Sequence record: MH675927.1
Reading direction: 5' to 3' (one strand)
From: Escherichia phage vB_vPM_PD114
Length of the DNA stretch: 64,000 bases
This document shows, one piece after another, positions 2,996-63,638 of the stretch (its first letter is position 1; the number at the start of each line of letters is the position of its first letter). Both the position numbers and the translations under genes were made by a program. Under the pieces are notes generated by a model. The model ran no database searches. It was given only the letters and a program-made list of their open reading frames with translations, and had not been told where the DNA came from.

Positions 2996-3586
2996 TTAAG
3001 GTAGTAAAATACTTTCAATTTCTTCCCACTGATTATCTAAACCAGTGATAATTACATTAGGAAGTTTCTTTAACTCTTCCAAATATGGATCTTCGTAAAT
3101 AGTGTTGAAATATATTTTCAACGTTTCATCTGGAAACAGGACAAGATTTTCAGCCCTATCGTCAATAGTTACATCGCAAGGTAATAAGTATTTTTCTTTT
3201 GTTGCGAAAAAACCATTACCAGATGTTCTACTAAAATCCACTTTATCTAAAGATCGTGTTACGTGTCTATATTTAGAACTAAGGTGTCCACCCTTAGTGT
3301 GGCTTGCTATAGATATATTAGCTCCATTTGCAATTATACGATGAACAACATCTGTACTATTAGGTACTACTCCCATAGTATCATATAGATGTTGGTTATC
3401 CCAAAAAGAGTAAGGATCTACACCAAATTGCTTTTTAAAATCAGGGAAATATTTCGTAATATCATAGTGCACAGTTTTATGTGTCTTATCAAATTTGATA
3501 TTAGATCTACTTACCGCATTTAACCAATTTAACCATTCTATATCCGCTGGAGCTATTACTAAATCCCAATCACATACTAGACGCAT
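2996..3586 (-). CDS. hypothetical protein (start moved to internal ATG with AGGAG RBS; track ORF 2996-3700 would overlap tdk by 131 nt)
   Basis: Minus-strand sequence AGGAGAAATA-ATG at 3586; ORF track. Confidence 0.4.
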   Translation of the reverse strand: MRLVCDWDLVIAPADIEWLNWLNAVSRSNIKFDKTHKTVHYDITKYFPDFKKQFGVDPYSFWDNQHLYDTMGVVPNSTDVVHRIIANGANISIASHTKGGHLSSKYRHVTRSLDKVDFSRTSGNGFFATKEKYLLPCDVTIDDRAENLVLFPDETLKIYFNTIYEDPYLEELKKLPNVIITGLDNQWEEIESILLP

Positions 3587-20325: not shown

Positions 20326-20407
20326 CGGGGTGTATCTCACCTGACTTCTAATCAGGCGTTAACCGAGTAATTGGAGTATGCAGGTTCGAATCCTGTCACC
20401 CCGACCA
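20326..20407 (+). tRNA. tRNA-like with Arg(TCT)-type anticodon arm, atypical D region
   Basis: Acceptor CGGGGTG/CACCCCG, T-arm GCAGG-TTCGAAT-CCTGT, CCA encoded; hairpin CCTGA-CTTCTAA-TCAGG only 7 nt after acceptor, no D-arm found by hand. Confidence 0.4.
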
Positions 20408-20425
20408 AAAAGTTTTAAAAACTAC

Positions 20426-20455
20426 TTGACAAGCAAGATAGTTTTATGTTAGATT
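20426..20455 (+). promoter_or_regulatory. sigma70-like promoter TTGACA-N18-TAGATT
   Basis: Read directly. Confidence 0.4.
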
Positions 20456-21471: not shown

Positions 21472-21548
21472 GGACTTGTAGAGTTAAGGTAAACCCTCAG
21501 TCGCAAAGAGGCTTCTGGAATTGCAGGTATCGAATCCTGCCGAGTCCA
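21472..21548 (+). tRNA. tRNA, anticodon unresolved
   Basis: Acceptor GGACTTG/CGAGTCC, T-arm GCAGG-(T)ATCGAAT-CCTGC with 8-nt loop; anticodon arm could not be folded unambiguously (possible loop GTCGCAA). Confidence 0.35.
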
Positions 21549-21554
21549 ATTATT

Positions 21555-21629
21555 GCTCCTATCGTATAACGGCTATTACGGTTGCCTTGTAAGCAACTTA
21601 TCAGGGTTCGAGTCCTTGTGGGAGCACCA
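21555..21629 (+). tRNA. tRNA-Thr(TGT)
   Basis: Acceptor GCTCCTA/TGGGAGC, anticodon arm GTTGC-CTTGTAA-GCAAC, T-arm CAGGG-TTCGAGT-CCTTG, CCA encoded. Confidence 0.55.
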
Positions 21630-21652
21630 ATTTTAACTCTAAAGGAGTGTAT

Positions 21653-21976
21653 GTGACAGAAAAAGAGTTAGAGAAATATTTTAATATCAATGTTTTCGAT
21701 GGTTTTGATGATATTGAAGATGTTGAAAGATATTATGAAGTAGAGTTAGATAAGGATAACATTGTAATTCTTTCTGCCACTTATGATTGTGCATATTATG
21801 AAGGTGAATCTCACGTTTATTTTTATGATATGAAAACATCTTTGTTTTATGAAGTACACGCATATCATTGTTCTTGTTATGGTTTAGAAGGTCAGTGGGA
21901 ACCTGAAGAAATAGGTGATTTGAGCTTTACGGTTGCATATCTAAACAGACGTGGTGCATCTACTATTTTAAAATAA
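21653..21976 (+). CDS. hypothetical acidic protein (107 aa) inside tRNA cluster
   Basis: AGGAG then GTG at 21653 (track start 21647 overlaps the RBS); ORF track. Confidence 0.4.
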   Translation: MTEKELEKYFNINVFDGFDDIEDVERYYEVELDKDNIVILSATYDCAYYEGESHVYFYDMKTSLFYEVHAYHCSCYGLEGQWEPEEIGDLSFTVAYLNRRGASTILK

Positions 21977-21990
21977 ATATTAAAAGCCTC

Positions 21991-22020
21991 TTGACAAAGG
22001 GGCTAATAATATGTTAGAGT
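21991..22020 (+). promoter_or_regulatory. sigma70-like promoter TTGACA-N18-TAGAGT
   Basis: Read directly; precedes tRNA-Gly. Confidence 0.45.
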
Positions 22021-22031
22021 AATATTGTTAA

Positions 22032-22106
22032 GCGGGTATAGTGTTAATGGTAGCATATGAGGTTTCCACCCTCCAGGTGCAGGTTCAAGTCCTGTTACTC
22101 GCTCCA
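22032..22106 (+). tRNA. tRNA-Gly(TCC)
   Basis: Acceptor GCGGGTA/TACTCGC, anticodon loop TTTCCAC, T-arm GCAGG-TTCAAGT-CCTGT, CCA encoded. Confidence 0.5.
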
Positions 22107-22537
22107 AGATTATTTAAATGGAATCGCTAGAGAAAATTTCTCTTTTCGCTCATGGTTTTCTCCTTCAAACTCTAGCGGTTCTTTTTAAGTGATTTTTTAG
22201 TTTATTGGAGATTCACTGCCTTAGTGTGAGCTAAAATCGAGGAGCCATCGAACTGTCTGATTAATGATTTGCGAATCATTATAGTTTTAAGACCCCGGCA
22301 GTTTTATGGTGTACCTCTTGAATGTGAATGATGACGGGTTTATGGTTATCCTGGTCGTTAAATATCCAAAAACCTATGTTCCCCTTGAGGGCTTGCGCAG
22401 GCAATGCCAATAAGTCCTGCATTTTCATTTAAAAGAGAATTTATAATGGAAAAAGATGAACTTAAGTATGCTAAGCCTCTGGCTTCTGCTGCACGAAAAG
22501 CAGTTCGTCACTTTGTGGTAACACTGAAGTAATTTAT

Positions 22538-22612
22538 TGGAGATTAGCCTAGTGGGAAGGCAACGGCCTTTGAAGTCGTGATGACTAGGTTCGATTCCTA
22601 GATCTCCAGCCA
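22538..22612 (+). tRNA. tRNA-Gln(TTG)
   Basis: Acceptor TGGAGAT/ATCTCCA, D-stem GCC/GGC, anticodon arm ACGGC-CTTTGAA-GTCGT, T-arm CTAGG-TTCGATT-CCTAG, CCA. Confidence 0.5.
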
Positions 22613-22619
22613 AGATTTA

Positions 22620-22695
22620 CAGTGCGTAGCGCAGTTGGTAGCGTGGGAGCCTTGGACGCTTCAGGTCGCAGGTTCGAGTCCTGCCGCACTGACCA
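22620..22695 (+). tRNA. tRNA-Pro(TGG)
   Basis: Acceptor CAGTGCG/CGCACTG (C1-G72), anticodon arm GGAGC-CTTGGAC-GCTTC, T-arm GCAGG-TTCGAGT-CCTGC, CCA. Confidence 0.55.
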
Positions 22696-22700
22696 AATTT

Positions 22701-23089: not shown

Positions 23090-23172
23090 AGCTGGGTAGA
23101 TTTAAAAGAGTATGGTACTCAATATGGCTCCAAACCATAGATCAAGGGGTTCGATTCCTCACCTTGCTGCCA
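23090..23172 (+). tRNA. tRNA-Trp(CCA)-like, boundaries uncertain
   Basis: Anticodon arm TATGG-CTCCAAA-CCATA, T-loop TTCGATT, 3' CCTTGCT-G-CCA; acceptor pairing has a mismatch, D region long. Confidence 0.3.
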
Positions 23173-23366: not shown

Positions 23367-23391
23367 AGCCTCCTTATTGGAGGCTTTTTGC
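23367..23391 (+). terminator. rho-independent terminator AGCCTCC-TTATT-GGAGGCT + TTTTTG at end of tRNA array
   Basis: Perfect 7-bp stem followed by T-run. Confidence 0.6.
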
Positions 23392-62912: not shown

Positions 62913-63600
62913 TTAGTCGTTCCTCCGCTTGCTTAAAAATATTTACATCGGCTTCACAGCCTAAGTATTCTCTACCTGTTAAAAGTGCCGCAACTTGTGT
63001 TGTTGCACTTCCAGAGAAGAAGTCTAAGACTACATCTCCTTCGTTGGTATGTATATTAATAAGGTCACAAAACAAAGTCAAGTGTTTTTGTGTTGGATGA
63101 AAACGATCTGCTCCTTGATAGATAGGATACTCAAACACACCCTTATGGTAGGAAGCATTGAAGGTTGGCTTCGAACCTTTAACACAAACAATAGCCATCT
63201 CTTTAGCGTTACTAAGGTAGTTAACACCACTGTTGATGGGTACAGGGTTTGTTTTAATCCATTCAATAGTACGGAACATACGAAAACCAAGTGGTTCAAG
63301 GATCTCACGTAGCTCCTGGATCTTCCAGATATCATACCAAACTATGCAAGTACCACCTTTTCTAAGCACCCTATAGGCTTCTTTGAATACTTCTTTAAAG
63401 TAAGGAATATCTACAACATCCCAGTCACCAAAGTTGTAAGATACACGGAATCTATCCGTATCTTTTCCAGTAGGCTCTCCAGATTGAAAATTTGTGTCAC
63501 GAGAAATAGCATATGGTGGGTCAGTAAGAATCAAATCTACACTATTGCTTTCGAGGGTTTGCAGGTAGTTTAATGCAGTGTTGTTTACAAATTCGCTCAT
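62869..63600 (-). CDS. DNA methyltransferase (DPPY motif; probably N6-adenine)
   Basis: VDLILTDPPY (motif IV) and C-terminal VLDFFSGSATT (SAM-binding motif I); RBS GAAGGAG. Confidence 0.7.
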   Translation of the reverse strand: MSEFVNNTALNYLQTLESNSVDLILTDPPYAISRDTNFQSGEPTGKDTDRFRVSYNFGDWDVVDIPYFKEVFKEAYRVLRKGGTCIVWYDIWKIQELREILEPLGFRMFRTIEWIKTNPVPINSGVNYLSNAKEMAIVCVKGSKPTFNASYHKGVFEYPIYQGADRFHPTQKHLTLFCDLINIHTNEGDVVLDFFSGSATTQVAALLTGREYLGCEADVNIFKQAEERLNEYTEQQNHPESTD

Positions 63601-63611
63601 TATATCTCCTT

Positions 63612-63638
63612 CAAAGAAAAGGAGCCGTTAGGCTCCTT
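63612..63638 (-). terminator. rho-independent terminator GGAGCC-TAAC-GGCTCC + TTTTCTTTG (minus strand)
   Basis: Read directly. Confidence 0.5.

Follow-up and report, generated by a model that had tools for sequence, protein, structure and literature searches.

Escherichia phage vB_vPM_PD114 (sequence record MH675927.1) is a phi92-like myovirus of the genus Justusliebigvirus, subfamily Stephanstirmvirinae. Within a 64,000-nucleotide stretch of this record, referred to below as the window, the interval from 22107 to 22537 lies inside an array of 15 to 16 tRNA genes, between tRNA-Gly(UCC) at 22032 to 22106 and an intact tRNA-Gln(UUG) at 22538 to 22612, both of which were called by ARAGORN and by Rfam. 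The array, like every feature described here unless stated otherwise, is on the plus strand. The 801 bases around the interval are 99.9% identical to those of Escherichia phage muut and 99.4% identical to those of phi92. Our analysis divides the interval into two unrelated features that stand side by side: a conserved structured RNA element, which we call element A (22105 to 22202), and a 332-bp insertion of DNA from T-even phages (22214 to 22545), whose two halves have exchanged places. We hold this account of the anatomy and origin of the interval to be close to certain and the explanation as a whole, including what follows from it, to be quite probable.

The T-even insert and its boundaries

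A search of 22107 to 22537 against 50,697 phage records returned only phi92-like phages for bases 1 to 107 of the interval and about a thousand T4-like phages, at up to 99% identity, for bases 92 to 431. The T4-like matches always came as two aligned pieces, annotated as "rIII" and "30.9." After aligning the window with the Tequatrovirus RB27 and with inny, a phage that lacks the insert, we rejoined 22214 to 22449 and 22450 to 22545 in the order found in T4. The resulting unit was identical to RB27 (KM607000.1, 127553 to 127222) at 332 of 332 positions and to the T4 reference (NC_000866, 130867 to 130537) at 327 of the 332. In RB27 and T4, the 3' end of rIII and its TAA stop codon are followed by TTTATTGGAGATT, an intergenic region of about 200 bp, and the start of gene 30.9 (ribosome-binding site and ATG). 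The window instead has TTTATTGGAGATT first, then the intergenic region with the ribosome-binding site of 30.9 and ATGG, then the 27 final rIII codons with their TAA, and lastly a second TTTATTGGAGATT. Read against these genomes, the insert is shown to be a circular permutation of a contiguous 332-bp segment of T4 DNA.

The sequence TTTATTGGAGATT bounds the insert as a direct repeat (repeat family D11), with its left copy at 22201 to 22213 and its right copy at 22533 to 22545. The repeat is exact over 13 nt, or 16 nt with one mismatch, and its copies are exactly 332 bp apart; tRNA-Gln begins with the last 8 nt of the right copy. In insert-free phages the repeat occurs once, at the same place, and the 13 bp were common to T4 and the recipient beforehand. 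Between the two copies, 22214 to 22445 is T-even DNA, 100% identical to RB27, that covers the spacer downstream of rIII up to and including the 30.9 ribosome-binding site, and 22450 to 22532 is T-even DNA from the 3' end of rIII through its TAA stop, as placed by alignment to the T-even phages. The junction of the two halves (22448 to 22450) reads ATAATGG joined to AAAAAG (ATAATGG followed by AAAAAGATG), with the GG at 22448 to 22449. The sites in T4 that meet there, at codon 56 of rIII and at the 30.9 start codon, share only this GG as microhomology. Exact matches of at least 13 nt between the 332-bp unit, taken as a circle, and the rest of the window number two, against a chance expectation of about 0.6, and the integration site is one of them. 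The insertion point falls in a gap of about 20 nt between element A and tRNA-Gln, both of which were left intact.

No other T-even DNA was found in the window by megablast, and the insert sequence is confined to a single locus in T-even phages and to this single site in phi92-like phages. The insert does not resemble a transposable element, a miniature inverted-repeat transposable element (MITE), or a homing-endonuclease cassette, as it has no terminal inverted repeats, no open reading frame (ORF) of more than 49 codons, and one copy in the window.

An earlier, sequence-only reading had described the interval as a structured, noncoding stretch of candidate small RNAs or decayed tRNAs and had pointed to a perfect hairpin, a fragment resembling the 5' end of tRNA-Gln, and a 28-codon ORF. 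All three are present: the hairpin, TAATGATT-TGCG-AATCATTA, at 22262 to 22281; the fragment, TGGAGATTCAC, at 22206 to 22216; and the ORF at 22446 to 22532, one base upstream of the start first given (22447). Their meaning is another matter. The fragment resembling the tRNA-Gln 5' end comes from the duplicated 13-bp crossover site and is a recombination scar, and neither the hairpin nor the ORF is native, both having arrived with the T-even DNA. The analogy that had been drawn with the small RNAs of T4 tRNA clusters does not hold for 332 of the 431 bp (~77%), which are recently imported DNA of the T-even rIII/30.9 region and not of a tRNA or small-RNA cluster. The link to T4 is thus a literal transfer of DNA.

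Probable route and history of the transfer

Because the segment is flanked in T-even phages by complete genes, rIII (82 codons) and 30.9, and the rIII tail is conserved out to the T4-like phages of Klebsiella, Enterobacter, and Serratia, the direction of transfer was from a T-even to a phi92-like phage. In about 1,000 T-even-like records, the two halves are always in the opposite order to that in the window and align as two pieces. The whole interval is covered by only 16 phage records, all of them Justusliebigvirus, four of which are mislabelled, UNVERIFIED "Campylobacter phage" records. In other phi92-like phages (for example, inny and ALITA), the native spacer runs straight into tRNA-Gln. 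About 55 records have the native spacer at 95% identity or more and 16 have the insert, so that about 70% of phi92-like phages are without it.

In every carrier the integration site is the same, and so is the junction. The carriers comprise nine named isolates (phi92, muut, ESCO9, SD2, PD06, phiWec187, AV123, arall, and the A150 type), which come from at least five countries, where the record gives one, and one separate contig from IMG/VR. Since the nine isolates and the separate contig agree, an assembly chimera is unlikely to account for the carriers generally. A 22-mer spanning the junction was found in two IMG/VR contigs, both phi92-like; it also occurs in three bacterial genomes, where the matches are due to chance (36 to 41% identity around the pattern).

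The A150-type records (MG065639, MG065645, MG065656, and MG065689) differ in their internal allele, which has an additional block of 44 bp and a patch of diverged sequence. Their intergenic block is 100% identical to the ECML-134/VEc74/teqsoen-type T-even allele, and their rIII block keeps two single-nucleotide polymorphisms (SNPs) of the RB27 type, not of the ECML-134 type. The simplest reading of these sequences is that there was one ancestral integration and that a collinear block was later replaced when a second T-even phage recombined with it by homology. The SNP pattern rules out that the A150-type phages captured a second circle independently; an assembly chimera is possible in these unverified records. 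The four UNVERIFIED "Campylobacter phage" records mentioned above contain Justusliebigvirus genomes, nearly identical to those of Escherichia coli phages, and mislabelling or contamination is the probable explanation.

When a circle and a linear genome undergo one reciprocal exchange, the expected outcome is an insert in permuted order with a copy of the crossover sequence at each end. We propose that, in a cell infected by both phages, T4 DNA would have given rise by illegitimate joining at GG to a circle of 332 bp (or its equivalent, a head-to-tail repeat) and that a single crossover at the 13-bp homology lying between element A and tRNA-Gln would then have integrated this circle. Circles of about 400 to 1,400 bp are excised from T4-type genomes. 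These promoter/stem-loop (PeSL) mini-circles were shown in infected cells and in DNase-treated virions and have been proposed as gene-transfer vectors that move cassettes by one-crossover re-integration (Arbiol et al. 2010, PMC2839356; Comeau et al. 2014, PMC4122927). The insert resembles them in being a circular permutation flanked by a direct repeat, as re-integration by a single crossover predicts. It differs from them in that its junction lies inside two coding sequences at a 2-bp microhomology and not between promoter/stem-loop motifs; no strong promoter was called in the insert. Moreover, integration would have relied on a chance homology of 13 bp, the recipient, an unrelated phage of the Stephanstirmvirinae and not another T4-type phage, belongs to a different family, and the cargo consists of gene fragments, with no complete gene. 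The geometry is also that of Campbell-type integration, in which one exchange between a circle and a linear target leaves a permuted insert between duplicated crossover sequences. Unlike the plasmids and prophages that integrate in this way, the insert has no integrase or attachment site, and the homology used is a fortuitous 13-mer.

Among topologically equivalent routes, we consider the one through a circle to be moderately probable. Two points weigh against it. The product would be no different if the donor segment had been tandemly duplicated or if templates had been switched repeatedly while a break was repaired, and none of about 780 T-even records carries the junction as one piece, so that there is no independent trace of the intermediate. 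The same donor and product may accordingly be explained with no free circle, either by a double crossover that copied one junction-spanning unit from a tandemly duplicated donor segment or by repair of a broken end in the tRNA array from T4 DNA, with template switches at the 13 bp, at the GG, and at the 13 bp again. Both schemes yield a permuted, repeat-flanked insert, and the array is a hot spot for break-making elements (HNH genes in phages ALITA and Tr1). Tandem duplications and microhomology joins are known in T4. However, the absence of the junction from the T-even records counts against these schemes too, three coordinated template switches would be needed where the circle requires two events, and mini-circles of such size have been physically shown in T4-type infections (PMC2839356). 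We regard a circle-free origin as possible but rather unlikely. A tandem duplication was also looked for directly in sequenced T-even phages, and none was found.

Mosaic genes are the usual evidence that unrelated virulent phages have exchanged genes, and they leave the mechanism invisible. For the insert, the donor allele is extant and identical, the empty site of the recipient is known, both junctions can be read to the base, and part of the imported DNA appears to have been overwritten since by a second T-even allele. With all of these known, the mini-circle route and ongoing recombination between T-even and phi92-like phages are both directly testable.

Element A and its possible roles

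Upstream of the insert, the first ~95 nt of the interval form a long hairpin, and element A has a predicted folding energy of -27.3 kcal/mol (z = -3.2 against shuffles). In its outer helix, 22107 to 22117 pairs with 22185 to 22195 (11 pairs, 99% of cells paired, 2 pairs compensatory), and in its inner helix, 22120 to 22132 pairs with 22170 to 22182 (13 pairs, 97% of cells paired, 8 compensatory); the 3' arms of the two helices together occupy 22170 to 22195. The inner helix contains the inverted repeat of the sequence-only reading, with GAATCGCTAGAG at 22121 to 22132 in its 5' arm pairing with CTCTAGCGGTTC at 22170 to 22181 (one base from the 22169 first given), and the AGAGAAA/TTTCTCT that had also been noted falls within this pairing. 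The apical loop, of 37 nt (22133 to 22169), is pyrimidine-rich and, judged by the invariant columns of the alignment, nearly invariant. A covariance model (R1) scored 106 bits (E = 4e-22) at 22105 to 22202, with no second copy in the window.

The sequence of element A is identical in all phi92-like phages examined. Homologs at the corresponding site, between tRNA-Gly and either tRNA-Gln or tRNA-Glu, were found in Klebsiella phage FKP3, Citrobacter phage Tr1, the phAPEC8-like phages, and 13 metagenome or IMG/VR contigs. No more distant homologs were detected: among 185 loci, the covariance model found only Stephanstirmvirinae-type copies, one per genome. Searches of phage records gave no T4 sequence match to the element. 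In an alignment of 12 distinct sequences from about five lineages, 98.3% of the cells at the 24 pairs are standard pairs, against 39 to 64% when the 3' partners are slid by 1 to 3 columns, and 10 of the 24 pairs show compensatory double changes, against 0 to 2 in the slid controls; the observed values were reached by none of 500 shuffles. Element A thus shows what is generically expected of a conserved structured RNA, compensatory pairing above that of slid and shuffled controls. The folded molecule is plus-strand RNA, of the same sense as the tRNAs, because 45 G·U cells on this strand would be mismatched on the minus strand, which would pair in only 83% of cells. The core of the loop, ATGGTTTTCTCCTTC, is identical in 12 of 12 sequences while both stems vary. 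Since the 12 sequences represent about 5 lineages, the covariation counts include inherited changes. We nevertheless consider it very probable that element A is a structured RNA. Two reading frames in the element were rejected as genes, a 24-codon plus-strand ORF that is shifted by indels in relatives and so is not conserved and a minus-strand micro-ORF in the loop whose length varies from 8 to more than 18 codons.

The earlier proposal of a structured region with candidate small RNAs therefore stands for the first ~95 nt, as a conserved structured RNA in a tRNA unit, and fails for the remainder. In comparative alignment, 22105 to 22202 proved conserved across the subfamily as sampled, and the 332 bp proved variable among close relatives. 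The Rfam scan assigned no family to 22107 to 22537 at the gathering score, at E ≤ 10, or at E ≤ 1, the only matches to described RNA families (Rfam 15) being three of chance level on the minus strand (E of 5.8 to 9.8).

A sigma-70-like promoter identified by consensus scan (TTGACA-18-TAGAGT, with TG; 21991 to 22020) precedes tRNA-Gly, and the unit to which the interval belongs is probably transcribed from it; a similar copy lies at 20426 to 20455 (repeat family D6). The scan called no further plus-strand promoter after 21991 to 22020 and up to a strong terminator-like hairpin at 23367 to 23385. The spacer between tRNA-Gly and tRNA-Gln is therefore probably transcribed within the tRNA precursor. 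Seven tRNA genes downstream of element A, from tRNA-Gln to tRNA-Ile, have no promoter of their own in the same scan, so their transcription would have to run through the element.

It is possible that element A, transcribed with the tRNAs from the promoter at 21991, would be released as a small RNA by tRNA processing, with RNase P cutting at the next tRNA, and that its loop would then pair with translation-initiation regions carrying GGAGAAAAC-C/U-AUG. The antisense of the loop is GAAGGAGAAAACCATG, that is, a Shine-Dalgarno sequence plus a start codon, and the pattern GGAGAAA-N(1-6)-ATG stands before at least seven real gene starts in the window (e.g., 19679 on the plus strand and 8619 on the minus strand). 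Because the loop is an exact antisense of this common ribosome-binding pattern of the phage, such pairing seems to us the most plausible action, although we put forward an anti-ribosome-binding-site function only weakly and have low confidence in any specific function for the features of the interval.

Several results weigh against it. No conserved target of the loop was found in the window or in the search for E. coli matches. The best duplex in the window, at the start of a methyltransferase gene at 63600 (-28.5 kcal/mol), is no outlier (the next are at -26.7 and -25.9), and this start is not a conserved target because the gene is absent from phAPEC8-like phages that keep element A. The best E. 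coli match to the loop antisense (22 of 23 nt, E = 2) is not significant. In addition, a pyrimidine-rich loop could reflect binding of a protein, such as S1 or Hfq, and not base pairing, and the element could act only in cis, as a processing site.

Three side observations concern the loop. The methyltransferase start, that of a DNA adenine methyltransferase found only in Justusliebigvirus (63600 to 63626, minus strand; TTTGAAGGAGATATAATGAGCGAA), shares 11 + 9 nt with the loop antisense. The 22-of-23-nt E. coli match is the start of a 56-codon hypothetical gene in a prophage-like region (E. coli E2865, locus 3501 to 3523) and is present in 512 of 5,426 E. coli genomes. Within the interval itself, the loop sequence AATTTCTCTTTT (22135 to 22146) is complementary at 11 of 12 positions to AAAAGAGAATTT (22431 to 22442), the ribosome-binding region of the 28-codon ORF, so that pairing within one transcript is possible; given the purine and pyrimidine bias of the two sequences, this may be chance.

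A role only in cis is a serious rival to release as a small RNA. Element A would then be a hairpin of the RNase III processing type that splits tRNA-Gly from the downstream tRNAs, or an intrinsic terminator or attenuator. The stacked helices, 24 bp in total around a small internal loop, are similar to RNase III sites of phages, and UUUUU follows the 3' arm of the inner helix. Neither a processing hairpin nor a terminator, however, explains why a 37-nt loop should be invariant while the stems vary freely. An intrinsic terminator has a G+C-rich stem, a loop of 3 to 8 nt, and then a U tract at the end of a unit, and element A does not have this form; it was not called by the scan, and its loop is far beyond that range. 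Since the seven tRNA genes from tRNA-Gln to tRNA-Ile would also be left without a promoter, element A is unlikely to be a strong terminator. We regard a purely cis-acting role as possible, if somewhat doubtful.

Taken at its fullest, our proposal is that element A would be a trans-acting RNA, cut from the phage tRNA precursor, that masks GGAGAAAAC-C/U-AUG sites of phage or host mRNAs and that the insert would be the first natural footprint of a mini-circle moving DNA between unrelated virulent phage families. We offer this combination as speculation, and as an unlikely one. If it is true, element A would be the RNA counterpart of the shut-off of early translation by RegA and RegB of T4.

Other RNAs are encoded next to tRNAs. 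Small stable RNAs, species 1 and 2 (rnaC/rnaD), are co-transcribed with the tRNAs of T4. Element A is comparable to them as a non-tRNA structured RNA inside a phage tRNA unit that is presumably released by tRNA processing, but it has no sequence relationship to T4, has another size and fold, and has its conserved part in the loop. In E. coli, regulatory RNAs derived from tRNA spacers, such as the 3' external transcribed spacer of leuZ, serve as sponges for host small RNAs. Element A may likewise be a transcribed spacer of a tRNA operon that acts by base pairing after processing, but unlike the sponges, its loop resembles an anti-ribosome-binding-site seed. GOLLD and ROOL are large RNAs of unknown function found beside phage tRNA arrays, hundreds of nucleotides long with complex folds, whereas element A is a simple bipartite hairpin of 95 nt with no plus-strand Rfam match. 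No description of element A or of the insert was found in the literature searched. Both would be undescribed instances of known categories and not new categories. What phage tRNA arrays contain besides tRNAs is largely unexplored, and element A is a well-supported RNA element to be added to it.

Contents of the insert and of the surrounding array

The 28-codon ORF at 22446 to 22532 (MEKDELKYAKPLASAARKAVRHFVVTLK) is a chimera in which the start of 30.9 is fused in frame to RIII residues 56 to 82. It begins at the authentic 30.9 ribosome-binding site and ATG, as annotated in NC_000866, and its RIII residues are 100% identical to the RB27 protein. The ORF matches PHROG 1457 (RIII, lysis inhibition accessory protein) at profile positions 60 to 86 of 86 (E = 7.6e-12) and is far from a full-length RIII, which would have ~82 amino acids and cover the whole profile. 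Pfam gave no match for the 28-residue peptide, for RIII, or for gp30.9, and there is no Pfam family for RIII. T4 RIII is a cytoplasmic antiholin cofactor and an S1-binding protein, with holin T and ribosomal protein S1 as its partners (PMC9409239). The ORF shares residues 56 to 82 with this lysis inhibition accessory protein, but two thirds of the protein, including residues 1 to 55, are missing, and its expression signals are those of gene 30.9. The RefSeq label of phi92 gp113, "lysis inhibition; accessory protein," is thus an overstatement and misleading: on its sequence, gp113 is an rIII fragment and not an rIII gene.

The other conspicuous feature of the insert is the hairpin at 22262 to 22281, an AT-rich, perfect stem of 8 bp with a TGCG loop, of T4 type, which lies 49 nt downstream of the donor rIII stop codon. 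It is deleted in some T-even alleles (HY01 and IME339) and is therefore dispensable in those phages. The 233 nt of T4-derived noncoding sequence that precede the ORF fold no better than shuffles (z = -0.94). In T-even phages, the spacer between rIII and 30.9 is hypervariable among Tequatrovirus, where the two halves of our query lie about 213, 288, 339, 382, and 492 bp apart and indels fall at a single hot spot after CTCTTGAATGT (44 bp more in T6, about 150 bp more in SF2-1, deletions in HY01 and IME339). A 49-codon minus-strand ORF and plus-strand ORFs of 34 to 35 codons in the T4 spacer span this hot spot and were rejected as genes.

Most likely the insert is a neutral passenger, with the hairpin and the 28-codon ORF as by-products of import. 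Alternatively, it may have been kept because the 28-residue C-terminal peptide of RIII is expressed and useful, either because in mixed infections it interferes with the lysis inhibition of T-even phages or the binding of RIII to S1, or because it modulates the lysis of the carrier phage itself. The in-frame fusion to an authentic ribosome-binding site and ATG would suit such a role, as would the retention of the RIII region that is best conserved at the DNA level in distant T4-like phages and matches the RIII profile. The insert has also persisted in isolates across decades and continents, and RIII has known partners in holin T and S1 (PMC9409239). However, an in-frame fusion arises by chance in 1 of 3 cases, and the frame has not been preserved in all carriers: AV123 has a K3N change, and in the four A150-type records a 1-nt deletion destroys it. 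Divergence among the carriers is too small for a test of selection, and ~70% of phi92-like phages do without the insert. We consider a useful peptide improbable.

The sequence-only reading of the whole 430 bp as decayed tRNA genes or native small stable RNAs, like T4 species 1 and 2, is very improbable and, for 22214 to 22537, largely refuted: a tRNA array does surround the interval, the first ~95 nt form a conserved structured RNA, and a subthreshold tRNA-like sequence exists elsewhere in the array (23109 to 23169), but 22107 to 22537 gives no tRNA signal even at E ≤ 10, 332 of its 431 bp are absent from most close relatives and 100% identical to T-even rIII/30.9 DNA, the T4-derived part folds no better than shuffles, and the tRNA-Gln-like fragment is the duplicated crossover site. 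The earlier judgment that the interval holds no intact tRNA was borne out by ARAGORN, which called no tRNA or tmRNA in it, and by Rfam, and there is no convincing native gene; the idea of decayed tRNAs was not, as neither program found anything tRNA-like even below threshold (Rfam at E ≤ 10 and E ≤ 1).

The tRNA array is a hot spot for insertions, including break-making elements. In phage ALITA, an HNH endonuclease gene is inserted between tRNA-Gln and tRNA-Pro (locus coordinates 730 to 1089), and phages ZYD and VEcB have a seemingly similar extra segment. Citrobacter phage Tr1 has an HNH-like ORF between tRNA-Gly and element A (locus coordinates 292 to 402). Spacer content differs even between very close relatives, the spacers around 20326 to 20404 being ~370 bp longer here than in phi92; the sequence at 20326 to 20404 is itself a tRNA by Rfam (40 bits) that ARAGORN missed. 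The tRNA-like sequence at 23109 to 23169, between tRNA-Met and tRNA-Ile, scores 22.9 bits with RF00005 (gathering score, 29) and has a good T-arm; it was neither called by ARAGORN nor annotated in phi92 and is a better candidate for a decayed tRNA than anything in 22107 to 22537.

Near-identical tRNA genes are common to unrelated phage groups. The tRNA-Thr region (21545 to 21633) is 94 to 96% identical to that of Felixounavirus-type phages (Mijalis and KhF1), and the tRNA-Pro region (~22612 to 22698) is 95 to 96% identical to that of T5-like Salmonella and Escherichia phages. The array also contains two similar promoter-like cassettes, at 20407 to 20453 (TTGACA-18-TAGATT) and 21972 to 22018 (TTGACA-18-TAGAGT), both with TG. 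In the latter, a short stem carries the -35 box in its loop, which recalls the promoter/stem-loop cassettes of T4.

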